DNA of 64,000 nucleotides from an uncultured Fibrobacterota bacterium (GCA_963753345.1 CAVWBU010000036.1:13477-77476), one strand, 5' to 3'. Counted from the first letter of the stretch, positions 33,799 to 51,214 are shown. The notes: generated by a model not told the origin, from the sequence alone. Translations and numbers: made by a program.

Positions 33799-35280
33799 AT
33801 GATCCGGGAATTTCGTGAACGTCTGAGATCGGACTGGCCGGTTGTCGGTGTGACTGCTGCGATTCTGCTTCTCCTTCTCCTTCTTCCCCTTTTCTTTGGG
33901 GGACTGAGGGAAGATGGATACTGCACGTACAGGATAATGTGGCTCAATTACCTCGGGCACCGGTTCAAGCTGCCCCTGGAAACCCCCAAGCCGCTGTACG
34001 CTCTGTTGTGCGGCGTCGTGGGCCATGGCGCGCTGTATCCCGTGACGTGCACGCTGTGCGCCGGCATATGCGCGCTGCTGATGAAAATGGCGCAAAGGCT
34101 CGGGGCGAGCGCATGGCAGGGACTTGTCGCGTTCTGCCTGTTCCTTGTCGGCAACGCCATGGTCCTGCCGGAGTTTGTGATGGCGTCATACTACACGATA
34201 CCCTATTTATTCCTCACGCTGGCGGCGGTATATGCTTTTGTAAGTAAACGCCCCCTCCCGGCGATGTTCTTTCTGCTGGGCGCGGGACTCCTCAGGCCCG
34301 AGGCGTGGCTGTTTGCGCCGGTGTTTATCCTTGCATCGGTATTCAGGAAAGAACGGGGGTTTTCCTGGTGGCTTCTGGCCTCTTTGACCGCCCCCCTCAT
34401 ATGGGTTCTGTTCGACGAAAGAATATCCGGAAGCCCCACTTACTCCCAGGATCTCACGGACTACTATGTGAAAACCCTGGGAATCATGCCTGTTTCGTTC
34501 GGCCAATTCTGGGGAGAGGCGGCCCGCGCCACGGCATCGACCTTTTTCCCGCCGACGCATCTGTTCGGGCTCGCGGCGCTGGTCTATGTGGCGGCCAGGA
34601 CGCGGAGGCACGAGCACCTTGTGATGGCAATCCTCGCGGTGGTGCCGTTTATGTTTCTCTGGCTCCTTTCCGCCGGTCATCCCGTGCTGGTTCAGACCAG
34701 ATTTTTTGCTTTCCCGATGCTCGTATGCTGTTTCTACGCAGCGCTTGTCATGAGGGAATTCTCAAAGAACAGGTGGATTCTTGTTCTGCTCTCCGCGGCA
34801 CTCCTCTGCGGTTCGTTTCAATTCGGCATGCTGTCCGACACGGCGCGGCGGATACGGAATGACGGTGCGATAGAAGAGGCGCGAAAAGACCTTGTGGAAT
34901 CCGTTAGAACCATGGAGAGCAATGCCGACGTTATCCTGTGCGGCCGCTCGGCCAGCTATTTTGCCTATCACCTCGGGGAGAGAGCGTCGCGCAAGCTGTT
35001 CATGTTCAGGGAGGCGGAAGCAAGAACGGATTTTGAAAAGAACTTTTCAAACGGGGTGGCTGTTTACATTCAGGACGATATGGCGGGCCTGGACAATGCC
35101 TTCAAGTTTCTTTCCGCACCGCGAATATACGAGGTGAACGGCTACCGTTTCTCGCCAGTGAAGGTGACGACGCGCGGCAACGGGATCGTGTATGCCGTTG
35201 AGAGGCTGCCCCGGCGGCTCATCCCGCCGCAGGGCCTTGGCGCGGCGCCCCCGGCCGACAAAGCAGGCGGCAACCGGTGA
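33799..35280 (+). CDS. Polytopic membrane protein, GT-C glycosyltransferase-like
   Basis: Many TM segments; TPKPL, LLRPEAW motifs. Confidence 0.5.
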   Translation: MIREFRERLRSDWPVVGVTAAILLLLLLLPLFFGGLREDGYCTYRIMWLNYLGHRFKLPLETPKPLYALLCGVVGHGALYPVTCTLCAGICALLMKMAQRLGASAWQGLVAFCLFLVGNAMVLPEFVMASYYTIPYLFLTLAAVYAFVSKRPLPAMFFLLGAGLLRPEAWLFAPVFILASVFRKERGFSWWLLASLTAPLIWVLFDERISGSPTYSQDLTDYYVKTLGIMPVSFGQFWGEAARATASTFFPPTHLFGLAALVYVAARTRRHEHLVMAILAVVPFMFLWLLSAGHPVLVQTRFFAFPMLVCCFYAALVMREFSKNRWILVLLSAALLCGSFQFGMLSDTARRIRNDGAIEEARKDLVESVRTMESNADVILCGRSASYFAYHLGERASRKLFMFREAEARTDFEKNFSNGVAVYIQDDMAGLDNAFKFLSAPRIYEVNGYRFSPVKVTTRGNGIVYAVERLPRRLIPPQGLGAAPPADKAGGNR

Positions 35281-35438
35281 AGCTCCCCGAGCTGCCGCAA
35301 GGAGTTTTCCAGCAGAAAACGTTTTCTTGCGGACAGCCTTGCCAAGGTGCCTCTTTTGTCTTATATTGTAGAGTGATCATTGGAGATTTGATCGGTGCCG
35401 GGACAGGTGCGCAAAAACAACCTTTTTTAGGGGGTATC

Positions 35439-37229
35439 ATGAAAAGACAGTTGTTCATTGGTGCAACGGCATTGATGGCGTTCCTTATTGTTGAGGCCAA
35501 TGCAGGTTTGGTGGCGTACTGGGATTTCAACGAGGGGAGCGGAGCCTTATTGCATGATAAAAGCGGACATGGCAACGATGGGACAATTTACGGCGCATCG
35601 TGGGCCTCGGGATTGACAGGCTCGTCACTCTATTTCAACGGAACAACCAACTACGTCGTACTGCCTAATCCGCTCCCCTTCGAGCTCCCGCGTTTTACCA
35701 TCGCATGCTGGATAAAGCCGCAAGACCCATATGTCGCGCAGTCAAGGGCCTTCTTCAGTAACTTGGAGGCGGTGTCCGGCGTGTCCAATGGCGTTTGCAT
35801 TGAGCTCGATATCAGACATTATCTTCACTTCGTCGTTGCCAGGGCCGATAACCAGGATTACTGGTTGGAAATTAATGCAACAGTTAGCATCTCCGATAGT
35901 TCCTACCATTTTGCCGCCTGTAGCTATGACGGGGCGAGTCTCAAACTGTTTTTCGACGGCGTATTTGTTGCACAGGCACCATACAGCGGCGGCATCAGGT
36001 ATAGCAATGTGATGCCCTATATCGGCGCTTCACCAAATGATATAAACCATCTAGGCTATTATAAGGGAAATATCGACGAAATGCGAGTGTATGACCAAGC
36101 GCTTTCCCTTTCGGAGTTGCTTGCTCTCTACAACAACAGGGGGCAAAGCGCCCTGGCGGAGTTCCTTATTCCGGTCCCGTCGCCCACCTATGACCGCCGT
36201 CCGGTCTTTTTCTGGCATCCCGTGAAAGGCGCAGGCGGATACAACATCCAGATTGACACCACCAGAAACTTCACCAATCCAATTATAAGCGTGGCTACAG
36301 CGGACACCTCTTTCAGGCCGGGTGCGGACCTTCCTATTGACACCATTTTTTGGCGGGTCATGGCAGGCGTCAATGACACACTCACCTATTTCTCGGACAT
36401 CGGCTCCTTCCTCATACAGAATCCGAAGGTGCCGCTTCTCATCCCGTACGAGCCCAAGGTAACCCTGGAGCGGAAGCCCCTCTTACGGTGGCATCCGGTT
36501 GCGGGGGCTTCTTCGTACACGCTCGAGATCGGCAATGATGTCGCCTTTATCAATAATTCTTACATCATTCCTCTCAGCGACACTCAGTATTCGCCAACGG
36601 TCAACCTTCCCTTTGGCGAAACGTACTGGCGTGTGCAATCAAGTCTTGCGCCTGCGTGGTCTGCCTTCGACATGTTCCAGATCGTTCCGGATTCGATACC
36701 CTTCCTGATCCGCTACAACGGGGCCGTGGTTTCGGCAGCGAAACCGTTGTTCGCGTGGCACCCGGTGGTCGGCGCCGCTTCATATACGGTTGAATTCGCC
36801 GGCAACGCTTCGTTTACAGGAGGATATGTCGTGCCTCTCACTGACACGTCTTTCGCGCCTTTGGTTGCTCTATCGAATGGCACGTGGTTTTGGAGGGTAA
36901 GCTCAAGCAGGAACCCTGCGTTGTTTTGCGCCCCGGACAGCCTTGTGATCGCATCGGTGCTGGCGAGGACCGAACGCAGATCAGCGGCCGTACCGTTTGC
37001 CGTGCGGTCCTTTAAAAGCCGTTTCGAGATAACGGCCGACTTCTCCACAAATGCGAACGTGAAAATCACTCTGTTTACGGCGGGTGGAAAGAAGGTTCTG
37101 GAGCGTTGCGTGACCGCCTGCGGTACAACGGTTTCAATCGACGCAGTAGAAGTCCCGACCGGCATTTACCTGATGGAATTAGTGGCAGGGGAGAAGTGCA
37201 TCAGGCAGAAGGTGATGGTGGCACGGTAG
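35439..37229 (+). CDS. Secreted LamG-domain protein with three FN3-like repeats and T9SS-type tail
   Basis: LVAYWDFNEG, GNIDEMRVY; three WHPVxGA..Y..WRV repeats; GIY..KVMV. Confidence 0.8.
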   Translation: MKRQLFIGATALMAFLIVEANAGLVAYWDFNEGSGALLHDKSGHGNDGTIYGASWASGLTGSSLYFNGTTNYVVLPNPLPFELPRFTIACWIKPQDPYVAQSRAFFSNLEAVSGVSNGVCIELDIRHYLHFVVARADNQDYWLEINATVSISDSSYHFAACSYDGASLKLFFDGVFVAQAPYSGGIRYSNVMPYIGASPNDINHLGYYKGNIDEMRVYDQALSLSELLALYNNRGQSALAEFLIPVPSPTYDRRPVFFWHPVKGAGGYNIQIDTTRNFTNPIISVATADTSFRPGADLPIDTIFWRVMAGVNDTLTYFSDIGSFLIQNPKVPLLIPYEPKVTLERKPLLRWHPVAGASSYTLEIGNDVAFINNSYIIPLSDTQYSPTVNLPFGETYWRVQSSLAPAWSAFDMFQIVPDSIPFLIRYNGAVVSAAKPLFAWHPVVGAASYTVEFAGNASFTGGYVVPLTDTSFAPLVALSNGTWFWRVSSSRNPALFCAPDSLVIASVLARTERRSAAVPFAVRSFKSRFEITADFSTNANVKITLFTAGGKKVLERCVTACGTTVSIDAVEVPTGIYLMELVAGEKCIRQKVMVAR

Positions 37230-37513: not shown

Positions 37514-37679
37514 AGAGAGGGACGACGGGTGATAGGTCGTCTGTTTTCACATGGCCAATCGAACATTCTCCCTCTGGCATAGGCTTTGCGGTTACAAGGA
37601 CATTCATGACCCGTGCATGGAACACGGAAACGGTCTATTTGCAAATTCACCAAATCCCTTTCTTCACGGAGGAACTGCT

Positions 37680-38393
37680 ATGCGCAAGCGAATGGCTGGT
37701 TTATTCGTCTGTCTGATCGTCTGCTTTGTTGTGGCGCAGGATCAAGATTCTCCGCGTTTCGGCATTAATGTGACGACCAACACCTTGTCACTGAGTAATA
37801 CCGACTATGGAGCAAAGGGATTGCGGAACACCGGAATGCTCGGCGGAAGATACTTTGTCATTCCGTCACTTGCCGTCGACGCCGCCGTCGGATTCGGTTT
37901 CAGCACCTCGACCAACGCCGATACCGCGGCGCTCACACCCAAAGACCCCGGCATTACGGAAGTGAGCGGGCAGGTGGGCGTGTTGTGGAAGTTGACACCT
38001 GGATCCTGGAAATCATATCTGGGGGTGGTCGTCGACGGCGGCGTTGCCTACCAAAAATGGTATGATGCCATAACACTCAAAGATACGACGAGAGTAATGC
38101 CCGCCCCTCCGGCAAAGAATTATGTGTCCTATACTCTGGTCGAACCCTATTCCGTTGTCATCCCGTTTATTTTTGCAGGCATCGAGCCGGGATTCGCATT
38201 CGACAATCATTTCTCGCTTTTCGCAAGTTTCGGCATAAACGCGATTTTCTACCCCGATTCCAAGGCAATCGATCAACGTTCGGTCAGTACGAATACCACC
38301 TATATAACCTCGCTTCCCCTTATCGAACGTAAAGACGCCAGTATCGAACTGTCGGTCTCCTCGGTCGGCCTCGGGGTCCGCTTTCTTTTTTAG
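37680..38393 (+). CDS. Outer-membrane beta-barrel protein
   Basis: Signal peptide, amphipathic strands, terminal GVRFLF. Confidence 0.7.
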   Translation: MRKRMAGLFVCLIVCFVVAQDQDSPRFGINVTTNTLSLSNTDYGAKGLRNTGMLGGRYFVIPSLAVDAAVGFGFSTSTNADTAALTPKDPGITEVSGQVGVLWKLTPGSWKSYLGVVVDGGVAYQKWYDAITLKDTTRVMPAPPAKNYVSYTLVEPYSVVIPFIFAGIEPGFAFDNHFSLFASFGINAIFYPDSKAIDQRSVSTNTTYITSLPLIERKDASIELSVSSVGLGVRFLF

Positions 38394-38464: not shown

Positions 38465-39622
38465 TTACCCTTCCAGCGTTATCCTCGCCCTTCCCTCGCG
38501 CTTTGACCGGTAGAGCGCCTCGTCGGTCCGCTTCACGATGCTCTTTTCGTCTTCGCCCGCCATTGCCTCCGCGATGCCGATGGAAAGGCTCACCCTTCCG
38601 AATTTGAACGCGCCGAACTGCTTGGAGATACGCTCCGCCGCGACTTTTGCCTGGTTCTTGTCGGTGTCGGGAAGAATGACGGCGAACTCGTCGCCGCCGT
38701 AACGGAAGCCGGCGTCGACGTCTTTACGGATGCATACCTTGATTACCTGGCCGAGCGACCTGAGCACCTGGTCTCCCACCTGGTGGCCTTCGGTGTCGTT
38801 GAGCTCTTTGAAGTGATCGATGTCGATGAGCATGATCGACAGCTTGCGCTGCGGGTTGCGCTTGAGCCGGGAGAGCTCGCGCACGATCTGGTCGTAGAAA
38901 TGCCGCACGTTGAACAGTTCGGTGAGGCTGTCGGTGATGGCAAGCTTCGACAGCAGCTCGTTCTTCTTGACAAGCTCGTTTTCGAGCTTCTTCTTCTCCG
39001 TGATGTCCTTGGCCGTCACCACGAGGCCGATGATCTGCTCGGCGTCGTTTTTCATCTCAGAAATGCTCAGGTTGAGAAGGATGATTTCACCCTGTTTGGT
39101 TTTCATGGGGATTTCTTCGTTCACCGATTTTCCGGAAAGAATGACCGCATTGAGGATCTTGCGCTCGTCGGCTTCATTGACAAAAAGTTGCTTGAGCGGC
39201 ACGCCTACGATCTCCTCCTGAATGTAGCCGAAGTGCATTTCCGAGCCTTTGTTGAATTTGAGGATGAAGGCGTCGACGTCGGTGGTGAAGATGATGTCGG
39301 TCGAATCGTCCAGGATGCTCTGGAGATAGTTCGATTTCGCAAGGGTCCTTCGCATCGTAAGCTGGGTCTTCTCCATTCTCTTGACAAATTCCCTGATGTA
39401 CTTGAAGAAGCCGAAGAGGAGGCCGCCAAGGAGTGAGGCGGCGAGCAACGAAACGAATGCGGCCCAGATCCATTGCGGGGACTTAAACAGCCCCAGAAAC
39501 ACCGCGAATACGAGAATCACCGCAAAGCACAATGCTCCCGCAGCGACAATCGTTTTTTGCGGTATACCGCTGTAGTTGTTGTAATTTGGAAGAAACGGCT
39601 TTATCAGGTTCACGTTGTTCAT
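38465..39622 (-). CDS. Membrane PAS-GGDEF diguanylate cyclase
   Basis: Two TM helices, PAS/PAC, TDSLT, DIDHFK, RYGGDEF. Confidence 0.93.
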   Translation of the reverse strand: MNNVNLIKPFLPNYNNYSGIPQKTIVAAGALCFAVILVFAVFLGLFKSPQWIWAAFVSLLAASLLGGLLFGFFKYIREFVKRMEKTQLTMRRTLAKSNYLQSILDDSTDIIFTTDVDAFILKFNKGSEMHFGYIQEEIVGVPLKQLFVNEADERKILNAVILSGKSVNEEIPMKTKQGEIILLNLSISEMKNDAEQIIGLVVTAKDITEKKKLENELVKKNELLSKLAITDSLTELFNVRHFYDQIVRELSRLKRNPQRKLSIMLIDIDHFKELNDTEGHQVGDQVLRSLGQVIKVCIRKDVDAGFRYGGDEFAVILPDTDKNQAKVAAERISKQFGAFKFGRVSLSIGIAEAMAGEDEKSIVKRTDEALYRSKREGRARITLEG

Positions 39623-39869
39623 TCACCTGATGAAATGTATCGTGAAGCGCAACCGCACTTTACAGCTTGCGCATCAACCGTTGAAAAAGGAATCATCTCA
39701 TCTTATTCTACACTAATTTGTTAAATAATAGAAGCAAAAAATGAGACGCTTGGTTTTTCGGTTTGTTTAAGCGCTTATTGATGATTACGAACCATGCTCT
39801 TTTTTCTTGTACGAAATGGACAAGCATATAGTATTTATGTCCAGGTTTGAGCAACAAGTAAGGTAAATC

Positions 39870-40250
39870 ATGCTCGGCAGAATAGACAAGACAAAAGGTC
39901 AGATGGAGGCCGAAATAAGCGACGCCGTCACCCGGTTCGAAAAAGAATTCATGGGACGGGGCCCGCTGGAGACGAGGACCTACATCATAGACGACATGGT
40001 GATCGTCCGGCTCAAGGGCGTGCTTACCAGAGCGGAATACCGCCTTGTGAAGTCGGAGCGCAACTCCAAGGCCCGCGACCTTGTCAAGCAGGTGCGCATT
40101 GAGCTGCTCGAAAACGGCAGGCCGCTGCTCGAGGACATCATCAGGGACGTGCTCAAGCGCAAGGTCAAGAGCATGCACACCGATATCAGTACCATGAGCG
40201 GGGAGCGGATCATTATCTTCACCCTCGACAGGGCCGCTCTGGAAGACTGA
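39870..40250 (+). CDS. DUF2294 / MpsC-family protein
   Basis: TKGQMEAEIS, GRGP, GVLTRAE, MHTDIST..GERIIIFTL. Confidence 0.85.
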   Translation: MLGRIDKTKGQMEAEISDAVTRFEKEFMGRGPLETRTYIIDDMVIVRLKGVLTRAEYRLVKSERNSKARDLVKQVRIELLENGRPLLEDIIRDVLKRKVKSMHTDISTMSGERIIIFTLDRAALED

Positions 40251-40357
40251 TTCCGCATATCGCAGAGTTTTCTTTGTCGCGCCCGGCAACCGTGAGTGTG
40301 ACATTTTTCACCGGCGTGCAATTGCGTCTAAGTTTTTTCTTGCCGTTTTCCCGGGGC

Positions 40358-40366
40358 TGTTATAAT
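40358..40366 (+). promoter_or_regulatory. Extended -10 promoter for pckG leader
   Basis: TGTTATAAT. Confidence 0.6.
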
Positions 40367-40509
40367 TTTTTAGTGCCGTACGGAAGCCGCGTGCAGGCGA
40401 CCTGCTTGGTCGCGGGCGCTTGCGGATGCCGGAACGGACGCGGCCGGTTTGCAACCGGCCCGGTATCAAGCCCGGTTGACTCTTGCTCAAGGGGCAGTCC
40501 GGGGGTGAG

Positions 40510-40552
40510 GGCCAAGGAAATGCCGAAGGGTATTTCTCTGGTCTTTTTTTTT
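40510..40552 (+). terminator. Intrinsic terminator in pckG 5' leader (attenuator candidate)
   Basis: GGCCAAGGAAATGCC-GAAG-GGTATTTCTCTGGTC followed by T9, about 100 nt before pckG ATG. Confidence 0.8.
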
Positions 40553-40655
40553 ACCAGGATATCCGGGATTAAAACCGATTATCAGGATAACAGGGCAACA
40601 GACGGCATCACCGCAGGAATTGCGGTGGCTTCCTGACAAGAAAGAAAGGAATACC

Positions 40656-42464
40656 ATGGATGTGAAGGCGACCGCTTCCAACAAGAAACTCGAGCAGTGG
40701 GTAAAAGACATTGCCGGCATGTGTCAACCTGACGGCGTTCACTGGTGCGACGGCTCGCAGGAGGAATACGACGGCCTGTGCGCCCGGATGGTTTCGTCGG
40801 GCATGGCCACGCAGCTCAATCCGGCAAAGAAGCCGGGGTGTTTTCTGTTCCGCAGCCACCCGTCCGACGTGGCGCGCGTCGAAGACCGTACCTACGTGGC
40901 GCCGCATTCAAAGGATGATGCCGGTCCCACAAACAACTGGATGGATCCCGACGCGCTCAAGAAGAAAATGACCGGTTTGTACACAGGCTGCATGAAGGGC
41001 CGCACCATGTATGTCATTCCTTTTTCCATGGGGCCAATCGGCTCGCCGATATCGAAAATCGGCGTGGAAATCACGGATTCGCCCTACGTTGTGGTGAACA
41101 TGAGGATTATGACCCGCATGGGAAAAAGAGTGCTTGACGCGCTCGGCGCGGACGGAGAGTTCGTTCCATGCCTTCATTCGGTGGGAGCGCCGCTTGCCAA
41201 AGGACAAAAGGATTCCGCATGGCCCTGCGCGCCCGATATCGCCAACAAATACATAAGCCATTTTCCCGAGGAGCGGACCATCTGGTCGTACGGGTCGGGC
41301 TACGGCGGCAACGCGCTTCTGGGCAAGAAATGTTTCGCGCTGCGCATTGCGTCGGTGCAGGCGCGCGATGAAGGGTGGCTGGCCGAGCACATGCTTATTC
41401 TGGGCATAACCAATCCTCAGGGAAAAAAGAAGTACTTTGCGGCAGCTTTTCCAAGCGCCTGCGGCAAGACCAACCTTGCCATGATGATTCCCACGATTCC
41501 CGGCTGGAAAGTGGAAACCGTCGGCGACGACATCGCCTGGATGAAGTTCGGCCCGGACGGAAGGCTGCACGCCATCAACCCTGAATCGGGTTTTTTCGGC
41601 GTGGTGCCGGGAACCTCCATGGATTCGAACGCCAATGCCATGCTTTCCATTGAGAAGAACACGATTTATACCAATGTAGTGCTCACTCAGGACAAAGATG
41701 TCTGGTGGGAAGGAATAGGGTTCGATCCTCCTGCGGGAAAAAACATCGACTGGACCGGACAGGAATGGGACATGACCATGCGCCGGACAGGCGCGCATCC
41801 GAATGCGCGGTTCACGGCCCCGGCCGCGCAATGCCCGGTCATTGATCCGGCATGGGAGGATCCGCAGGGAGTTCCGATAAGCGCGATCCTTGTCGGCGGC
41901 CGCAGGCCGACAACAATACCGCTTGTGCATCAGGCTTTTTCGTGGAACCACGGCGTTTTTCTCGGATCGATTGTCGGCTCTGAAACCACCACGGCAAACA
42001 TCGGTGCGGTCGGCGTGGTCCGGCGCGACCCGTTTGCCATGCTTCCGTTCTGCGGATACCACATGGGCGACTATCTGGCGCATTGGATTGAAATCGGCAA
42101 GAAGACCGCGGCCGACAAACTGCCCAAGATTTTTTATGTGAACTGGTTCAGAAAAAGCGACGACGGCAAGTGGCTGTGGCCCGGCTACGGCGAAAACAGC
42201 CGGGTGCTCAAATGGATATTCGAGCGCACCGACGGCGCGACCAATGCCGTTGAATCTCCAATCGGCTACCTGCCCGCTCAAGGCGCCATAGACACCAGCG
42301 GTCTGCCGGTTGCGGCCTCGGACATGAAGGAGCTGTTCAGGGTGGACGCAGCGGAGTGGAAGAAGGAACTGGAGGGGATCAAGGACCATTACAGGAAATT
42401 CGGATCAAGGCTGCCTGCGGCTCTTTCCGGCGAGCTTGCGGCTCTTGAGAAGCGGCTGGGATGA
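40656..42464 (+). CDS. pckG: GTP-dependent PEP carboxykinase
   Basis: [44 protein letters not shown]. Confidence 0.97.
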
Positions 42465-42592
42465 CGGGCTACGATTGTTCACCAGGCTAGGGGTTTATTA
42501 TATATTAATGAACCAGGCCACAATCGCCCTTCCGGCTTGGCCAAAACCATAAAGAAACATCGCACTGCGACCACAACAGAAGGACATGAGCC

Positions 42593-43429
42593 GTGCCTTG
42601 GTTTATCAAGTCTAAGACTGCGGAAAAGCAGACCAAACCGGTCAAGGACGACATCTGGGTCAAGTGCGATTCCTGCAGCGCTCATGTTTTTAAGGAAGAC
42701 TGGTACAATTCCCTCAATGTCTGTCCCAAATGCGGATTTCACGGCAAGCTCACGGCGTATGAGCGCATCGGGCAGATCCTCGACATTGAGACGTTCAAAG
42801 AAATGTTCGCCTCAATAACTCCGTCCGACCCACTCTCCTTTGTGTATGCCAAGGGCAGTTACAAAGACAAGGTGAAAGAAACCCGCGATAAAACCGGGCT
42901 CAATGAATCGGTCGTGTGCGGCACGGGAGAAATCCATGAAATTCCCGTTTCGATAGCCGTAATGGATTTCCGGTTTTTCGGCGGCAGTCTGGGCAGCGGT
43001 ACCGGAGAAAAGATCCTGCTTGCCTCAAACTACGCATACGAGCACAAAATCCCGTACATCATTTTTTCCGCCTCAGGCGGCGCGCGCATGCACGAAGGGA
43101 TCCTTTCGCTCATGCAGATGGCCAAAACATGCGCCGGCATTGCACGGCTTCGCGAAAAGAAAATCCCCTACATTTCGGTCCTTACGGATCCGACGACGGG
43201 TGGCGTCGTTGCTAGTTATGCCATGGTAGGCGACATCAACATCGCGGAACCAGGTGCGCTGGTCGGCTTTGCCGGCAGGCGCGTGATAGAGCAAACCATA
43301 AAGCAGAAACTGCCCGAAAATTTTCAGACCTCAGAGTACTTTCTTGAGCATGGCTTCATCGACCTTATCGTTGAGCGCAAGAATCTTAAAGAAACCTTGA
43401 AAAACGTTCTCCTCTACTACACCCGGTAA
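42593..43429 (+). CDS. accD: Acetyl-CoA carboxylase carboxyltransferase beta (GTG start)
   Basis: WVKCDSC..CPKC zinc finger, SGGARMHEG, PTTGGV.AS, GFAGRRVIEQT. Confidence 0.96.
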   Translation: MPWFIKSKTAEKQTKPVKDDIWVKCDSCSAHVFKEDWYNSLNVCPKCGFHGKLTAYERIGQILDIETFKEMFASITPSDPLSFVYAKGSYKDKVKETRDKTGLNESVVCGTGEIHEIPVSIAVMDFRFFGGSLGSGTGEKILLASNYAYEHKIPYIIFSASGGARMHEGILSLMQMAKTCAGIARLREKKIPYISVLTDPTTGGVVASYAMVGDINIAEPGALVGFAGRRVIEQTIKQKLPENFQTSEYFLEHGFIDLIVERKNLKETLKNVLLYYTR

Positions 43430-43453
43430 AAGGTCCCAGCGGGGCAAATTCAT

Positions 43454-44404
43454 ATGAGCGATTATCTTGAATTTGAAAAGTCGATTGCCGAGATGGAGAA
43501 AATGATCGAGAAGCTCAAATCGATCTCTCCCGACGAGAATCATTACAGCGACGAAATCGCCGAGCTTGAGAAAAAATGCCTCCACCAGAAGCAGGAGCTA
43601 TACTCCAGCCTCACACCCTGGCAGACGGTCCAGATCGCAAGGCATCCAAAGCGTCCCGTGCTGCAGGATTACATTTCGCTTATTTTTTCAGATTTCATCG
43701 AGCTTCACGGGGACCGCTGTTTCGGCGACGACCAGGCGCTCATCGGCGGGTTCGCCACCATCGGCAAGCGCCGGGTGATGCTTGTCGGCCACAACAAGGG
43801 CAAGAACGTCGACGAAAACGTATTGCGCAATTTCGGCCAAGCAAAGCCCGAGGGATATCGCAAGGCGCTCCGTCTCATGAGGCTTGCCGAGAAGTTCAAT
43901 CTGCCCATACTTTGCTTTATCGACACGCAGGGCGCGTATCCAGGCGTCGACGCCGAAGAGCGCGGTCAGCCCGAAGCCATTGCCACCAACCTCACCGAAA
44001 TGGCGCGTCTCGAAGTGCCCATAATAGCCGTGGTCACCGGCGAAGGCGGCAGCGGCGGCGCGCTTGCCATCGGCGTGGGTGATTCGGTGCTCATGCTGTC
44101 GCATGCGGTGTATTCGGTGATTTCTCCCGAAGGGTGCGCATCCATTTTATGGCGCGATGCGTCATTTTCGCCCCAGGCCGCCGAGGCGATGAAGCCCACG
44201 GCCCAGTCGCTTCTGTCGCTGGGCGTGATAGACGAGATAATTCCTGAGCCCCTTGGAGGCGCCCACCGTAACCACGAACAGACCGGCCAGGAAATCAAGC
44301 GCGTGCTTCTCAAGCACCTCAAGAAACTGTGCGCCCAGTCTGCGTCGAGACTGGTGAGACACAGGTTCGAGAAATATTCAGCGATGGGATTGTTTGCAGA
44401 TTAG
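43454..44404 (+). CDS. accA: Acetyl-CoA carboxylase carboxyltransferase alpha
   Basis: ARHPKRP, ELHGDR, PEGYRKA, GEGGSGGA, YSVISPEGCASILW. Confidence 0.96.
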   Translation: MSDYLEFEKSIAEMEKMIEKLKSISPDENHYSDEIAELEKKCLHQKQELYSSLTPWQTVQIARHPKRPVLQDYISLIFSDFIELHGDRCFGDDQALIGGFATIGKRRVMLVGHNKGKNVDENVLRNFGQAKPEGYRKALRLMRLAEKFNLPILCFIDTQGAYPGVDAEERGQPEAIATNLTEMARLEVPIIAVVTGEGGSGGALAIGVGDSVLMLSHAVYSVISPEGCASILWRDASFSPQAAEAMKPTAQSLLSLGVIDEIIPEPLGGAHRNHEQTGQEIKRVLLKHLKKLCAQSASRLVRHRFEKYSAMGLFAD

Positions 44405-44431
44405 GTGCGCGTTTTTATGATCTGACCGCAA

Positions 44432-44545
44432 AATCACCACAGAGACACAGAGGCCACAGAGAAAACGAGAGCGAGAATCAAGAATGAAATTCACCAGGTG
44501 CACCGTTTTTTCAAGGCTTTCAACTTCCAACTCTCAACTTTGAAC
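44432..44545. repeat. Short tandem repeats between accA and carboxylase gene
   Basis: cacagag x3 (caccacagagacacagaggccacagag); tttcaac ttccaac tctcaac tttgaac at 44518-44545. Confidence 0.65.
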
Positions 44546-44603
44546 TCTTCTTCTCTCCACGGGGTGAAAGTATTTTAGTTTTTCAAACCAACAGGATACA
44601 ACC

Positions 44604-46595
44604 ATGGCCGCCATAAAAAAACTGACCATAGAAAACAAACTCCACAAGATCCCGCTGCGCATCACCGACACCACGCTGCGCGACGCGCACCAGTCGCTGT
44701 GGGCCACCCGCATGCGCACCGCGGATATCGAAAAAATCATCGACGTCATCGACAACGTCGGCTATTATTCGCTGGAATGCTGGGGCGGCGCGACGTTCGA
44801 CGTGTGCCTCCGTTTTCTCCGCGAGAACCCGTGGGAGCGTCTGAGGCTCATCAAGTCGAAGGCGAAGAAGACGCCGCTGCAGATGCTTCTGCGGGGGCAG
44901 AACCTTGTGGGATACCGCAACTACGCCGACGACGTCGTCGACCGGTTCGTGGCCCTTGCCTGCGAAAACGGCATGGATATCTTCCGCGTGTTCGACGCGC
45001 TTAACGACACGCGCAACATCGAAGCAGCAGTGAGGGCGGTCAAGAAACACGGCGGTCACGCGCAGGGGACGCTGTGCTACACCATAAGCCCGGTGCACAC
45101 CATCAAGAAATTCGTGTCGTACGCGCGCGAGCAGAAACAGCTCGGCGTGGATTCGATTTGCATCAAGGACATGGCGGGAATTCTTTCGCCCATCATGGCC
45201 GAGCGGCTCGTGAGCGCGCTTATCAAGGAGCTTGAAATACCCATCCAGCTCCATTGCCATGCCAGTTCCGGCATGGCGATCTCCAGCTACGTTGAAGGCG
45301 TCCGCGCCGGCGCGGGCGCGATCGACTGCGCCATTGCCGCAATGGCCGGAACCAGCAGCCAACCGCCTGTTGAGACCATGGCCGCCATTTTTTCGGAGAC
45401 CGACTATCACGCCGATCTCAACCGTGATGCCATGCTCCGCGTGCACCGGTACTTTGCCGACCTGTACGCTCAGCGCAACACCGACACGTCGCTCGTGTTC
45501 TGCATCGACCCCCAGATCCTCATCCACCAGATCCCGGGCGGCATGATCTCGAACTTCCGCTCCCAGCTCGCGAAGCAGAATGCGCTTGACAAACTGGAGG
45601 ACGCGCTCACGGAAGTCACGCGCGTGCGCGAGGACCTCGGATGGCCGCCGCTCGTGACGCCCACGAGCCAGATCGTGGGGACACAGGCGGTGATGAACGT
45701 GCTTTCCGGCGAGCGATACAAGATCGTCCCCAACGAGGTGAAGGACTATTTCCGCGGCCTGTACGGCCGCGCGCCGGCAAACGTGAACCCGGAACTGGCA
45801 AAGAAGATCCTCGGCGACGAGAAGCCCATCACCGTGCGGCCCGGCGACACCATCGCTCCCATGCTGCCCAAGGCGACCGAGGGAATAGATCCCAAGTACA
45901 TCAAGAACGAGGAAGACATTATTTCGTACTGCATTCTTCCCGAGCCGAGCCTTGAGTATTTCAAGTGGCGCGACATGCCGCCGGACAAGCGTCCCGAAAC
46001 GCCGGCGGACCTGGAGCTTAAGAAACTGAGCGCTGCCGCAGAAAAGAAAACCGCGGTGACAACGGAGAAGAAAGAGGAGGCTCCTTTCCTCGACCAGATA
46101 CTGCACCCCGAAGATTACCGCGGACTCGGCGAACTCCTCAACAGGGCCGGAGGGCTTCGGCTTGACGAATTGACAGTTAAGAAAGGCGATTTTTCCCTGT
46201 CGCTCAGATCGGACACCACGAGAATGCCTGTAATTCCCAAACCGGTTCCAACTGCCGCTCCCGGGGAGGCTTCTACAAAAAAAGAGGGCAAACCGGCAGA
46301 AGCCGGACCCGCGGCCGCAAAGGAAGAAAAGAGCGCGCCGATCCCAACGGTTGGACCGTCGATCAAGGCGCCTCTGGTCGGCGCGTTCTATTCCACGTCC
46401 GGACCGGGCAAGCCGAAGCTTGTGAACGTGGGAGACGTGGTGGAGGCCGGGACCAAGGTGTGCATCGTGGAGGCCATGAAGCTGTTCAACGAGATAGTTG
46501 CCCCTGTCAGGTGCAAGATCCTTCAGTTCCTCGTGGAGGACGGGACCACGGTGGAAAAGAACCAGCCGCTGATTGCCATAGAAGAATTAAAGTAA
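44604..46595 (+). CDS. Pyruvate/oxaloacetate carboxyltransferase (PycB/OadA/5S-like) fused to AccB-type biotin carboxyl carrier
   Basis: RDAHQSL, WGGATFD, IKDMAG, HCH, PPLVTPTSQIVG; C-terminal APLVGAFY..EAMKLFNEI. Confidence 0.9.
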   Translation: MAAIKKLTIENKLHKIPLRITDTTLRDAHQSLWATRMRTADIEKIIDVIDNVGYYSLECWGGATFDVCLRFLRENPWERLRLIKSKAKKTPLQMLLRGQNLVGYRNYADDVVDRFVALACENGMDIFRVFDALNDTRNIEAAVRAVKKHGGHAQGTLCYTISPVHTIKKFVSYAREQKQLGVDSICIKDMAGILSPIMAERLVSALIKELEIPIQLHCHASSGMAISSYVEGVRAGAGAIDCAIAAMAGTSSQPPVETMAAIFSETDYHADLNRDAMLRVHRYFADLYAQRNTDTSLVFCIDPQILIHQIPGGMISNFRSQLAKQNALDKLEDALTEVTRVREDLGWPPLVTPTSQIVGTQAVMNVLSGERYKIVPNEVKDYFRGLYGRAPANVNPELAKKILGDEKPITVRPGDTIAPMLPKATEGIDPKYIKNEEDIISYCILPEPSLEYFKWRDMPPDKRPETPADLELKKLSAAAEKKTAVTTEKKEEAPFLDQILHPEDYRGLGELLNRAGGLRLDELTVKKGDFSLSLRSDTTRMPVIPKPVPTAAPGEASTKKEGKPAEAGPAAAKEEKSAPIPTVGPSIKAPLVGAFYSTSGPGKPKLVNVGDVVEAGTKVCIVEAMKLFNEIVAPVRCKILQFLVEDGTTVEKNQPLIAIEELK

Positions 46596-46610
46596 GACTA
46601 CGAAAAAGAT

Positions 46611-47105
46611 GGGCGTTCCCCCGGCTGTGCAGAGGCGTAGCGCGCTACGCCTCTGCACAGCCGGGGTCGGTCTCCCTACGGGCTCGGCTATTCGCCTCGT
46701 TGCCGGACCGCCCCTAGTCGCCTTCGGCGAGGGGTCGGCCGGCAATGCGCTCTGGCGCACCCTCCGGTCCCCCTAACGCGGCGGCAACGGAATTCATTTC
46801 AGTCAATTACTTCTTCTTGCGCCAATTGGTATCCACCTAGTCAACGTTATTTCTTCTCAACTCCTCAACTTCTCAACCTCTCAACTAATCTTCTTGGTGC
46901 CCCCGCGACCAAGGTTTCTTTCTTGCAAATTTACTCTCTAGGGGGCTACCCAAGAGAGGAAAGCGCCCGCCCAACAGGAAGGGCGGAAAGCGCTGCCGAG
47001 GACCGCGAAGAGGGCCGAGGCCGGGGGAGACGACCCTTGGAAGTATGCCCCTTCGGGCATCCCTGAAGAGGGACCCGACGGGGTATACCTCTCCCCCGAC
47101 AAATC
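46611..47105 (-). repeat. Composite structured intergenic element (modules A + 8-mer array + B), inverted copy
   Basis: Reverse complement aligns with 59961-60381 and 62735-63152; includes perfect 48-bp palindrome 46619-46666. Confidence 0.85.
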
Positions 47106-47290
47106 TTTTGATGTAATAGCAACCCTGCCTGCCGGAATTGTTGATTTTTCGCCCCCGACAGAGTAATTTTTAAGCGTTTTAGGGGGGTAATCAAATCCTC
47201 GATTTGTGGGACGGCGCAACCAGACGTAAATGATTGCGGCGGTATGTGTTGACTACTGCGACATCACATGAGTCGGAAGCCTGGAAAACC

Positions 47291-49262
47291 ATGATATCGT
47301 CATCAATAAAAACTCGGGTGGGGCTGCGCCGGGGTGTCGGCAAGAATGCAGAGCCTTCAGTCACCCAACGAACTTGTACCGCTCTGGCTTTTTTCCTTCT
47401 CGCTGCGGCGCTGTTTGCCGGCAGCAGTGCGCAATCTCCCGACGAGCCCATCATAACTCCTTTTGGCCAGACGGGGCTCAAGTACACCGAAAGCGCGAAA
47501 ACGCTCGGCGCCGGGAGGCTGGTTTTTTCGGCGTTCGGCGATATGAGCCTTGACGCTTCGGAAATAGATTATGTCAATATCAACAACCTCAGCGTCGACC
47601 GAGGACTAACGCCCAAAAGCAACCAGTACTCCCTTATGCCCGCGTTGGGGTTGGGCATTACCCGCATCCTGGATTTTTCCGCCGCCCTTCCATTGAACAT
47701 CGACTGGACGTCACGGTACGCGGATACAATTTTCGGTCATGTGGAAGGTTACGGAGGTCTGCAGGGCGGCATCGGCGATCTGGAAATGAAGCTCAAACTG
47801 CAGGTGCCTCCGCGCAACGGCCCGCGTGTTGTCGATATGGCGCTGCTGGCGGGAATGAGCGTGCCCACGGGCAGCAAGACACAGGGATTTTTTCCCCGCC
47901 ACACTTACTACCTTCTTAAGGATTCCTTGTTGACGAACACGCCCAGCGGCGACACCGCGCAGGCCATTTCGGAATATTATTCGTCGGGCGCCGTGGAAAC
48001 CGAAGGGAAAATCATCCTTACCTTCAACTGCTGGGAACACGGCGCCGTGATTCCGCTCCAATTGCATCTCAATCTCGGGACCCGGCTCATTTTGGCGCGC
48101 GGATTCGATGAAGTCATCCTTTTTGATGCCGCAGCCGAATACAGGCCCGCGCCGTGGTTTTCACTGTATGCGGAATTGAGCGCGGAACCGAGGCTGGGCA
48201 GCATCACAAACGGATTCAAAATCGGCGAACGACCCGCTCAGGATTTCTCCGGGTTTCACCATGCACCTCCCGGAAGGCATGTTTATCTCGTTGGGCGGCG
48301 ACTGGGGACTTTCCTCGCACGATCCCATCACCTACGAAAAGGACGGCTCCTTCACCGAGGCGCGGCTGCAGCCCGATTGGATGGTGAGCGTGGCGGTGGG
48401 ATGGACCGGGTTCCTTTACAAGGTTGAACCCGGGAAGAAAGTGGTAAAGAGCGGCGACAGCGACAACGACGGAATCCCGGATTCAATTGACAAATGCCCC
48501 ATGGTTCCCGAGGACTGGGACGGGTTTGAAGACCAGGACGGGTGTCCGGATTACGACAACGACAAGGACGGCATCGCCGACTCCGTCGACGAGTGCCCCG
48601 ACGATCCCGAGGATTACGACGGGTTCAAGGACAAGGACGGATGTCCGGACCCGGACAACGATAGGGACGGCATCTGCGATCCTTGGGTCGCCGACCAGCA
48701 CCGCGAGGACCAGTATGCAAAGATCTGCACGGGCGTTGACAAATGCCCCAACCTGCCTGAGGATTTCGACGGGTTTGAAGACCAGGACGGTTGCCCGGAC
48801 TACGACAACGACCTTGACGGCGTTCCCGACAGCCTCGACAGGTGCCCCAACGAACCCGGCCCTGCCGACAACCAGGGATGCCCCAAGCCAGTGGAGGCTC
48901 CGAAGGTAAAAGAGATCAAACACGGCAGGCTTATTCTCAAAGGCGTCGAATTCAAGGGAACCTCCGCCGATCTTACGGCAGAGTCCTTTCAGAAACTCGA
49001 CGACGTTTTCGAATCGCTCAAAGCGTATCCGGGAACAAAGATTGAGATTTGCGGTTACACCGACAACACCGGCAACCCGGCCGCCAACAAAAAGATTTCG
49101 CTGCGCCGCGCCGAAACCGTCCGGGCCTACCTTATTCTGCGCGGGATAGATTCCTCCCGCATCACCGCCGTAGGCAAGGGCCCGGAGGATCCGATCACCA
49201 ACAATACGACCCCCGAGGGCCGCGCGTTCAACCGTCGTATCGAAATGAAGCGCATCGACTGA
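47291..49262 (+). CDS. OmpA-family protein: beta-barrel, TSP3 repeats, OmpA domain (+1 frameshift near 48228; start uncertain)
   Basis: Two ORFs join to match the downstream paralog (DPLRISPG vs DPLSLTPG); DxDxDG repeats; GYTDN, RRAETV, NRRIE. Confidence 0.85.
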
Positions 49263-49312
49263 CGCAGGGATTCGGTGCGGCCGCGATCGTTAGTACAACA
49301 GGGAACAATGCG

Positions 49313-51214
49313 ATGAACCTGGCCGGGAGAATCCGTTTGTGTTTCGTGTTGTGGTGGTGCGCCTGCGCCGCGTCGCACGCGACCGACAACACCGACGGCC
49401 TGGACGGCGTGGTGCGCGTCCAGTCGGCAAAGACCCTCGGCCGCGCGAAAATGAACGTGGGGCTGGGCGTGGAGTTCCAGCAGTCCTCCGATTATGTAAA
49501 GGGCCCCACCTGGGATATCACGCGTATTGAGCCCCACGACACGACATTGACAAACGTGATACAGGACCCGGCCAAGATCATTTCCGGCAATTTCTTCCTG
49601 TCCATGGGACTGCTTGATTTCTGGGACCTTGCCGCGTCCCTGCCGCTGTACTACGACTGGAGCGGGTTCGGGCCGTACGACGCCGGGCTCGGCGACGTCG
49701 AGGTGATCTCCAAGTTCATGATGCCGCCGGTCTCGTTCAACAAGCTGTTCTACGAGGCTGTTATCATTGCGGCGACTCTCCCCACCGGCATGAAAGGCAA
49801 CGGCCTCTTTCCGCGCCATCTGCACTTTGCCGCCGACGCCGACACCAATCCTGCCAAGGATTTCTACACGGTCGGCTACGCCACCGTGAAACCGATGCTG
49901 GCGCTCACTCTCGATCTTGGAAAGCGGCACGTGCCGCTGCAGATCCACGCCAATCTCGGCGGCGTTTTCGCGGAAGTCAACACGGAGAATACGGTCGTGG
50001 GCGGGCTGGCCGTTGAATACACGCCGGCCGAATTCGTCACGCTTTTTGCCGAGATCACTGCGGAATCCCGCTGGAGCAACATTTCGTCCGGGTACGACAT
50101 CCGGAAGGACCCGCTGTCGCTCACTCCCGGGATAAGGATCAGCGCGCCCAACGGACTTTACTTCTTTTTGACCGGGGATTTCAGCCTTTCGTCGAAGGAC
50201 GACCGGTACCGGTACAACTGGGACAAAAAGGGATACAACTATTCCACCGGGATCCAGCCGGACTTCGGCGTGCAGTTCACGTTCGGATGGTCCGGGTTCG
50301 TGACAACGCAGGACCGGGACCACGACGGCGTTCCCGACAACGTGGACCGCTGTCCCGACGATTCCGGGCCGGCGGCGAACAACGGCTGTCCCGACCCGGA
50401 CAACGACAAGGACGGCGTCTGCGATCCGTGGGTCTCCCAGAAACACCAGGAAAGCAAGTACGCCGACGTGTGCAAAGGCATTGACAAATGTCCAACACAG
50501 CCCGAAGACATGGACGGGTTTCAGGACGAGGACGGCTGTCCCGACTTCGACAACGACGGCGACGGTAACCCCGATCTCAAGGACCAGTGCCCGAACGAAC
50601 CCGAGGACTTTGACGGGTTTCAGGACGAGGACGGCTGCCCCGACCGCGACAACGACCACGACGGTATCCCCGATATTGTTGACAAATGCCCCAACGAGCC
50701 GGAAGACATCGACGGCTTCGAGGACGAGGACGGCTGTCCCGATTACGACAACGACCACGACGGCATTCCCGACCTCATGGACAAGTGCCCCAATGTTGCG
50801 GGCCCGGCCTCAAACAACGGCTGCCCCGATACCACGCCTCCTCCCAAGCCGCCAAGGAAGGAACCGGATTTTCCGAAACAGCAAGTACTGCGCGGCGTCA
50901 CCTTCCAGGGAAGTACGGCCGAGCTCACGTTCGAATCCCTGCAATGGCTCGACGCCGTTGCCAGGACCATGAAGGAGTTTCCTGAGATCGAGATTGAAGT
51001 GCACTGCTATACCGACGGCTTGGGAAAATACGCGACGGTTATGCAGATCACCCAGATGCGCGCGGAGGCGGTGCGGCAGTACATCATCAATCAGGGCATA
51101 GACCCCGGCCGCGTGCGGGCCGTGGGATACGGGTCGGCAAGCCCCATTGCCGACAACAGGACCGCAGCGGGAAGGGCGCTCAACCGCAGAGTGGAAATCG
51201 TTCGCACCAGGTAA
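49313..51214 (+). CDS. OmpA-family protein with TSP3 repeats (tandem paralog)
   Basis: Signal peptide, SAKTLG, repeated DxDxDG.PD..DKCP, GRALNRRVEI. Confidence 0.9.
   Translation: MNLAGRIRLCFVLWWCACAASHATDNTDGLDGVVRVQSAKTLGRAKMNVGLGVEFQQSSDYVKGPTWDITRIEPHDTTLTNVIQDPAKIISGNFFLSMGLLDFWDLAASLPLYYDWSGFGPYDAGLGDVEVISKFMMPPVSFNKLFYEAVIIAATLPTGMKGNGLFPRHLHFAADADTNPAKDFYTVGYATVKPMLALTLDLGKRHVPLQIHANLGGVFAEVNTENTVVGGLAVEYTPAEFVTLFAEITAESRWSNISSGYDIRKDPLSLTPGIRISAPNGLYFFLTGDFSLSSKDDRYRYNWDKKGYNYSTGIQPDFGVQFTFGWSGFVTTQDRDHDGVPDNVDRCPDDSGPAANNGCPDPDNDKDGVCDPWVSQKHQESKYADVCKGIDKCPTQPEDMDGFQDEDGCPDFDNDGDGNPDLKDQCPNEPEDFDGFQDEDGCPDRDNDHDGIPDIVDKCPNEPEDIDGFEDEDGCPDYDNDHDGIPDLMDKCPNVAGPASNNGCPDTTPPPKPPRKEPDFPKQQVLRGVTFQGSTAELTFESLQWLDAVARTMKEFPEIEIEVHCYTDGLGKYATVMQITQMRAEAVRQYIINQGIDPGRVRAVGYGSASPIADNRTAAGRALNRRVEIVRTR

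Follow-up and report, generated by a model that had tools for sequence, protein, structure and literature searches.

The 64,000-nucleotide stretch of DNA analysed here (hereafter the window; GCA_963753345.1, CAVWBU010000036.1:13477-77476), from an uncultured Fibrobacterota bacterium, carries accD and accA, the genes for the carboxyltransferase subunits of acetyl-CoA carboxylase (ACC), directly upstream of a gene for a 663-aa fusion protein, in which a carboxyltransferase of the OadA/PycB/5S type is followed by a complete AccB-type biotin carrier. No gene for the biotin carboxylase AccC was found in the host genome. Judging from these sequences, we consider it probable that AccD, AccA and the fusion act together as an ATP-independent oxaloacetate:acetyl-CoA transcarboxylase that feeds fatty-acid synthesis of type II (FAS II), with AccC being an optional extra in some relatives. 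The gene inventory, the kinds of domain, the conservation and the phyletic distribution described below are direct observations, and it is from them that we infer the reaction, its direction and the existence of a physical complex.

The gene cluster and its host genome

A preliminary description of this DNA had listed five co-oriented open reading frames at positions 39870-46595, all on the + strand, and both the coordinates and the Pfam/NCBIfam assignments agree with it. The first encodes a small protein of the MpsC/DUF2294 family (126 aa; 39870..40250; PF10057, 128.9 bits), followed by a GTP-type phosphoenolpyruvate (PEP) carboxykinase (PEPCK; 614 aa; 40620..42464; NF003253, 971.8 bits, cut-off 504), the proposed supplier of oxaloacetate from PEP, CO2 and GDP. 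Next come AccD, the carboxyltransferase beta subunit with its Zn ribbon (278 aa; 42593..43429; TIGR00515, 372.9 bits, cut-off 317.45; PF17848), and AccA, the alpha subunit (316 aa; 43454..44404; NF004344, 477 bits, cut-off 357; PF03255, 472 bits). The fusion closes the cluster (44604..46595), with HMGL-like, PYC_OADA and Biotin_lipoyl domains and a match to NF006761. Residues C25, C28, C44 and C47 of AccD do not vary among 20 sequences.

The host genome (G000, with the window on contig C36) comprises 4.5 Mb in 55 contigs and is 94% complete, not closed; it was covered, window included, by six-frame HMM searches. The earlier statement that the window holds neither a biotin carboxylase nor OadB extends to this whole genome. 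The top matches to the biotin carboxylase model TIGR00514 are only CarB (66.6 bits; cut-off 626.5) and a 441-aa PurD, Biotin_carb_C has no match at E<=1, and tblastn with the AccC proteins of three relatives returns only CarB (24% identity) and PurD. The biotin carboxylase subunit PycA was not found by HMM or tblastn, and OadB (PF03977/OAD_beta) gives no match at E<=1, OadG not being part of the search. Carboxyl_trans occurs at a single locus, the accD-accA pair of the window, and for a 12S-type CoA carboxyltransferase the model TIGR01117 (mmdA) reaches only 59 bits against a cut-off of 998.8. Biotin_lipoyl (PF00364) has four matches; besides the fusion, they fall on a 2-oxoacid dehydrogenase E2, on GcvH and on a lipoyl-type domain attached to FabH, and by its sequence the fusion is the sole biotinyl protein candidate of the host. 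The genome also encodes FabD (329.9 bits; cut-off 260.9), FabH and BirA; thus, malonyl-CoA is needed and biotin is in use. No recognisable enzyme was found in it that could use bicarbonate to carboxylate biotin.

The PF00364 domain fused to FabH (contig C49) was considered as a second biotin protein and rejected, since its motif is ESAKAS and it matches E2 models, which makes it lipoyl type. It stands N-terminal to FabH/KAS III in a 440-aa protein (G000:C49:94544-95863, + strand, the same as L008:1468-2787), and PF00364 matches also fall on frames of similar size in the relatives G004, G019, G017, G036, G010, G024 and G035. It is unusual for the initiating condensing enzyme to carry a swinging-arm domain of this kind. 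As for CarB, its matches at G000:C15:90288-95666 and G000:C55:1388-6766 share identical scores and spacing, which suggests a duplicated stretch or redundant contigs.

Anatomy of the fusion protein

The N-terminal carboxyltransferase domain (residues ~15-465; 44646..45998, + strand), delimited with phmmer, AlphaFold2 and Foldseek, consists of a TIM barrel and the PYC_OADA helical part. Its nearest solved structures by phmmer are Vibrio cholerae OadA (2NX9, 480 bits), PycB from a two-subunit pyruvate carboxylase (5KS8, 459 bits) and, from the transcarboxylase of Propionibacterium shermanii, the 5S subunit (1RQB, 409 bits). Alignments to these solved relatives show that the LRDAHQS, IKDMAG and LHCH motifs are retained, which are the metal- and substrate-binding motifs of the 5S and OadA structures. 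An AlphaFold2 model of the fusion, built on an alignment of 106 homologs, has a mean pLDDT of 84.2, mostly above 90 in the carboxyltransferase domain, and Foldseek matches it to 2NX9 (TM 0.93, rmsd 2.0 Å) and 1RQH (TM 0.90). Among the family models, the fusion reaches 755 bits on NF006761, a model of the domain type named 'pyruvate carboxylase subunit B' whose cut-off is 402, and falls below the cut-offs of both pyruvate carboxylase equivalog models (NF010644 and NF010645), of the oadA model TIGR01108 (676 bits; cut-off 756.5) and of the 5S equivalog NF008984 (502.5 bits; cut-off 827).

The preliminary description had the 663-aa carboxyltransferase ending in a biotin carrier, which is borne out, and the carrier can now be refined to a full-length AccB-like unit, as residues 508-660 match nearly all of E. 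coli AccB (4HR7_B 26-176; 151 residues). In sequence terms, the C-terminal third is a complete ACC-type biotin carboxyl carrier protein (BCCP), with N-terminal module, thumb and biotinyl-lysine motif, and more than a bare biotinyl domain. The AccB N-terminal-like module (residues ~500-536; 46101..46211, + strand), identified by the alignment to 4HR7_B and by AlphaFold2, is modelled as a helix (502-518) and two strands (522-527 and 530-535) at pLDDT 55-73, and is joined to the carrier by a tether of ~40 residues (537-577) modelled as disordered. The biotinyl domain (residues ~581-661; 46344..46586, + strand) is of the AccB type with a thumb; it is modelled with confidence over residues 586-661 (pLDDT 83-95) and aligns without gaps to 1BDO/3BDO through the thumb stretch; with the 1.3S, MmdC and PycB carriers, the alignment begins only past the thumb. 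Its biotin attachment motif, EAMKL, places the lysine at residue 626 (nt 46479-46481, + strand), and E623, A624, M625, K626 and L627 are invariant in 106 sequences. On the carrier model TIGR00531, the protein scores 104 bits, below the cut-off of 115.2.

The AccB-like module is conserved in relatives both with and without accC, in an alignment that leaves out G002, G008 (414 aa, in-frame TAA) and G001 (partial, contig end). Within the accC-less genus, Nei-Gojobori dN/dS values, which are rough because dS is ~1, are 0.03-0.11 for the carboxyltransferase domain, 0.07-0.09 for the AccB N-terminal-like module, 0.06-0.18 for the biotinyl domain and 0.29 for the tether. All functional modules of the fusion are thus maintained by purifying selection in the absence of AccC, and the idea of a relaxed constraint on the N-terminal module in accC-less genomes was rejected. 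The best 120 of 2394 longer relatives of the fusion are single-chain pyruvate carboxylases and one OadA-OadB fusion (weak evidence of absence), and the best 120 of 7742 longer AccA relatives are AccD-AccA fusions or unrelated fusions.

The cluster with and without AccC in related genomes

The order-wide counts refer to 67 genomes of the window's order that are at least 85% complete; the close homologs are publicly labelled as "Chitinivibrionales", "Chitinispirillaceae" and "Chitinispirillales bacterium" metagenome-assembled genomes (MAGs), with one "Fibrobacteres bacterium". The accC gene is absent from 50 of these genomes, several of them 98-100% complete, and present in 17. It is found in none of the six genomes of the window's own family (94-99% complete), which also lack pycA, nor in families f7 (0/1), f8 (0/2) and f9 (0/7); in f5 it occurs in 7/39 genomes, and in f2, f3 and f4 in 2/3, 3/3 and 5/6, respectively. 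The search for biotin carboxylase was controlled on 14 reference genomes and gave a match in 13 of them at E<=1e-60. Since accC is missing from 6/6 family genomes and 50/67 order genomes, its absence from the host does not reflect an assembly gap.

The fusion, for its part, is present in 65/67 order genomes at E<=1e-100. Its linkage to accDA, first seen in this single window, is a conserved one: the fusion is directly preceded by AccA in 28/30 loci (the exceptions being a second copy in G020 and one contig end) and by accD-accA in 19/20 extended loci (the exception being G021), and the adjacency is retained across the order at 59-86% protein identity. The small DUF2294/MpsC gene is found upstream of accD in 9/20 relatives examined, as well as in L051. 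The transcarboxylase reading of the preliminary description is therefore supported, at the level of sequence, by both genomic tests that it named, with neither accC nor pycA in host or family and a conserved linkage to accDA.

The distribution of AccC itself is patchy. On a quick maximum-likelihood tree of the fusion, from which the same three sequences were left out, accC presence and absence are interleaved, with six changes, at least two of them forced by well-supported branches; G036, which has accC, is sister to G019, which lacks it and is 100% complete. Where present, accC is a lone gene without accB and its contexts vary (6/6 loci). The accC-bearing genomes G017, G036 and G010 offer no carrier candidate other than the fusion, whose BCCP must therefore serve their AccC. 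The interleaving, together with the fusion as only carrier, means that the cluster works both with and without AccC, and suggests that accD-accA-fusion is the constant part and AccC an optional module.

The pattern may be a wider one. Four further genomes carry the full cluster (L051-L054), and biotin carboxylase is missing in three of the four, their completeness not being established. The closest unlinked homologs of the fusion come from gut MAGs labelled Kiritimatiellae, Lentisphaerae, Verrucomicrobia and one 'Gemmiger' (L055-L062; G236-G243). They are ~565 aa long, share 58-61% identity over the carboxyltransferase domain, have a plain carrier without the AccB N-terminal module and do not adjoin accDA; their genomes, again of completeness not established, have biotin carboxylase in 0/8 and AccA in 8/8, at 55-59% identity. 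In the Fibrobacter-like family f13, the fusion is found in 0/110 genomes and biotin carboxylase is missing in 74/110; OadB is present in 71/71 genomes, and the three genomes that were checked have no AccA/AccD. These three encode a 12S-type carboxyltransferase (520 aa), a small carrier (~130 aa) beside OadB and a remote 5S-like protein (525 aa), the loci being G147:C1 (~2401061-2402430, 63624-65075 and 1491739-1493316), G179:C1:1757915-1761759 and G089. Malonyl-CoA might be made in f13 by a transcarboxylase or by a sodium pump run in reverse. Finally, Thermotoga maritima, one of the 14 controls, has matches for FabD, Carboxyl_trans, PYC_OADA and OAD_beta and, despite its fatty-acid synthesis genes, none to Biotin_carb_C and none to TIGR00514 at E<=1e-60. 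The phylum-level tallies include one unpublished genome (G199, family f16), on which no order-level claim depends.

Taken at the scale of the order, we lean, if only somewhat, towards the view that biotin carboxylase is dispensable throughout, with malonyl-CoA for membrane lipids made through PEPCK and the fusion as a hub docked to AccDA, and with AccC repeatedly lost or gained. Perhaps the same applies to Fibrobacter-like genomes, some Kiritimatiellae/Lentisphaerae-labelled MAGs and Thermotoga.

Proposed reaction, alternatives and known systems

The net reaction that we propose is oxaloacetate + acetyl-CoA -> pyruvate + malonyl-CoA, which would replace the ATP-dependent ACC as the source of malonyl-CoA for FAS II. 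K626 of the fusion would be biotinylated by BirA, the N-terminal OadA/5S-type domain would transfer the carboxyl group of oxaloacetate to the biotin with release of pyruvate, and the tethered AccB-type carrier would then swing to the AccA/AccD active site, where the carboxyl group would pass to acetyl-CoA. This near-equilibrium reaction would be pulled by FabD and the condensing enzymes. With PEPCK included, the predicted sum, by textbook stoichiometry, is PEP + CO2 + GDP + acetyl-CoA -> pyruvate + GTP + malonyl-CoA; the energy of PEP would pay for the activation of CO2 and GTP would still be made, so that each malonyl-CoA would cost one ATP less than by way of pyruvate kinase and ACC. In relatives with an AccC, the same carrier could also be charged with ATP and bicarbonate, and the fusion would become a hub for ACC, pyruvate carboxylase and transcarboxylase chemistry.

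The role that the preliminary description gave to PEPCK, as the supplier of oxaloacetate, stands in part: the gene adjoins the cluster in the host and in 28/67 order genomes, where PEPCK domain and fusion are 1.9-2.15 kb apart on one contig (room for accD and accA), and the link is missing in the other 39. AccC occurs in 2/28 of the genomes with a cluster-linked PEPCK (G029 and G054) and in 15/39 of the others, an association that is a tendency and not a statistic, since the genomes are related. Among the 17 accC-bearing genomes, one has the close type of PEPCK, five a divergent type and 11 none. PEP carboxylase was not found in the host genome and ATP-type PEPCK is found in 0/67 order genomes, which leaves GTP-PEPCK as the only recognised C3-carboxylating enzyme here; as far as gene content can tell, this fits the pathway first suggested. 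The divergent PEPCK (31% identical to that of the window; ~310-356 bits on PF00821) can occupy the slot upstream of accD, as seen in L155 (G029), L167 (G014) and G013:C123:5-661.

Several points weigh against a transcarboxylase. AccC is retained by 17/67 relatives, and the architecture is compatible with ordinary ATP-dependent charging. The genomes of the order are related and not independent, so that there are fewer independent events than the counts suggest. Seventeen accC-less genomes have neither the GTP nor the ATP type of PEPCK (G011, G025, G030, G050, G051, G053, G069, G073, G019, G020 and seven f9 genomes), so this enzyme cannot generally be where the oxaloacetate comes from. Transcarboxylation lies close to equilibrium and cells usually contain little oxaloacetate, which makes flux dependent on the pull of fatty-acid synthesis. 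In E. coli (4HR7), biotin carboxylase is contacted by the part of AccB to which the N-terminal module corresponds, and this module stays constrained without accC; of all features, this one alone could hint at an unseen partner, and dimerisation, anchoring or docking could explain it as well. Finally, an unrecognised, non-homologous way of carboxylating biotin may be compatible with the sequence data.

The alternative that survives best, although we hold it to be improbable, develops this last idea: an ordinary ATP-dependent ACC, and a two-subunit pyruvate carboxylase, whose biotin carboxylase was lost in assembly or is non-homologous or very divergent. It can draw on the stand-alone AccC of the 17 relatives, which must use the carrier of the fusion, on the conserved module just mentioned, and on a host genome that is incomplete and not closed. 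However, biotin carboxylase is among the best-conserved enzymes; the six-frame HMM and tblastn searches gave only CarB and PurD in the host, the same kind of search succeeded in 13/14 controls and yet failed in 50/67 genomes, near-complete ones among them, and no conserved ATP-grasp gene was seen alongside the cluster in the neighbourhoods of the 30 loci and 20 extended loci.

A second alternative, that the fusion is a stand-alone OadA or PycB whose adjacency to accDA is coincidental, with the malonyl for lipids coming from another route or the fatty acids being imported, appears to us decidedly unlikely. Public records name the homologs either 'oxaloacetate decarboxylase alpha subunit' or else 'pyruvate carboxylase subunit B', in line with this idea, which is further favoured by V. 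cholerae OadA being the best solved relative and by the closest homologs outside the phylum not being adjacent to accDA. Against it, OadB is missing in the host and in all six genomes of the window's family, and among genomes at least 95% complete it is found in part of the order only (f5 11/23, f9 6/7, f4 2/3). Where present, OadB adjoins a separate OadA paralog of ~600 aa, 26-28% identical to the fusion; all four such paralogs examined have a thumb-less carrier ending EAMKME, with 22 residues between the PxPG/PLVG motif and EAMK versus 29 in the fusion. Within one genome, the ACC-type BCCP is thus found only on the AccDA-linked protein, and, since OadB genomes have their own OadA paralog, the fusion is not the alpha subunit of the pump. 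The order-wide adjacency to accD-accA also speaks against coincidence, and, the fusion being the only biotinyl protein, AccA/AccD would be left without any carboxybiotin donor. A third possibility, that the complex runs in reverse in an anaplerotic or catabolic role (malonyl-CoA + pyruvate -> acetyl-CoA + oxaloacetate) or serves as a soluble decarboxylase, can be set aside as very improbable: transcarboxylation is, as general knowledge has it, freely reversible (EC 2.1.3.1), but no independent source of malonyl-CoA was found (no biotin carboxylase, no other carboxyltransferase), FAS II genes that consume malonyl-CoA are present, and the co-located PEPCK already gives oxaloacetate.

The genes around the cluster appear unrelated to it. 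Upstream lie the genes for a protein with a LamG domain and a T9SS sorting tail (35277-37229), for a beta-barrel protein of the outer membrane (37551-38393) and, on the minus strand, for a diguanylate cyclase with PAS and GGDEF domains (38465-39622); the downstream flank (47234-51214) includes two OmpA/TSP3-repeat proteins (48261-49262 and 49049-51214). A promoter/terminator scan of 39400-47300 gave site counts no higher than shuffled sequence (4 vs 3.7; 16 vs 9.9, sd 3.1) and is uninformative on operon structure. The stretch or part of it is contained in 13 sequencing runs, all of them DNA metagenomes from peat, freshwater sediment and soil.

ATP-free biotin transcarboxylation is a classical reaction, known from the 12S/5S/1.3S enzyme of P. 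shermanii. The proposed system resembles that transcarboxylase (EC 2.1.3.1) in being biotin-dependent and ATP-free, and the 5S subunit is homologous to the N-terminal domain of the fusion (1RQB; TM 0.90). However, the CoA side of the P. shermanii enzyme is a 12S-type hexamer in place of AccA/AccD, the carrier is a small 1.3S subunit that lacks the thumb, and its physiological substrate is methylmalonyl-CoA, in propionate fermentation. Of its traits, the window and host have the 5S-type carboxyltransferase and the lack of a biotin carboxylase, and have neither the 12S-type single chain nor a thumb-less 1.3S. The likeness to the heteromeric ACC of the E. coli type lies in AccA and AccD, both above equivalog cut-offs, and in a carrier whose alignment takes in all of AccB, with its thumb and MK motif; the difference is that AccC is absent from genome and family and AccB is fused behind an oxaloacetate carboxyltransferase. 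From the OadA/B/G pump and PycA/PycB come the structures closest to the carboxyltransferase domain, 2NX9 and 5KS8; the system differs from both in having no OadB, no PycA and an AccB-type carrier.

The novelty of a malonyl-CoA-forming oxaloacetate transcarboxylase is less than the preliminary description assumed, as two papers already report a single-chain enzyme of this kind for Entamoeba and Giardia (PMC8136499, PMC7985675). According to them, the protist transcarboxylase (Entamoeba histolytica, Giardia, Mastigamoeba, retortamonads) has the same net reaction as proposed here, acetyl-CoA + oxaloacetate -> malonyl-CoA + pyruvate, and likewise combines two carboxyltransferase activities with a biotin carrier in hosts without conventional malonyl-CoA synthesis (PMC8136499, PMC7985675). 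As there described, it is one fused polypeptide serving eukaryotic fatty-acid elongation; here, by contrast, there are three bacterial genes, which encode canonical AccD/AccA and a full-length carrier of the AccB type and are linked to FAS II and, in many cases, to PEPCK. For bacteria, the genome paper on Chitinispirillum, in its accessible part, discusses only the oxaloacetate decarboxylase sodium pump (PMC4814513), and our literature search, whose coverage stops short of subscription journals and supplements, returned no description of a bacterial split oxaloacetate transcarboxylase based on AccA/AccD, of accC-less Fibrobacterota or of a lineage-wide loss of accC. What differs here is the bacterial three-gene form with canonical AccA/AccD, the full AccB fused to the oxaloacetate-side enzyme, the coupling to FAS II and PEPCK and the order-wide, repeated absence of AccC, the reaction itself being already known.

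If the proposed reaction is true, annotations of the fusion as 'oxaloacetate decarboxylase' or 'pyruvate carboxylase subunit B' would have to be corrected, together with the metabolic models that infer a sodium pump or a pyruvate carboxylase from it. The cluster would also provide ready parts for an ATP-neutral supply of malonyl-CoA in metabolic engineering, a purpose for which transcarboxylases are already discussed (PMC8085960). In bacterial fatty-acid synthesis, ACC with its biotin carboxylase is regarded as the committed step, one that is universal, essential and costly in ATP, and as an antibiotic target. A transcarboxylase in its place would mean that AccC is not universally required, and would account for how energy-limited anaerobes spare one ATP for each C2 unit.

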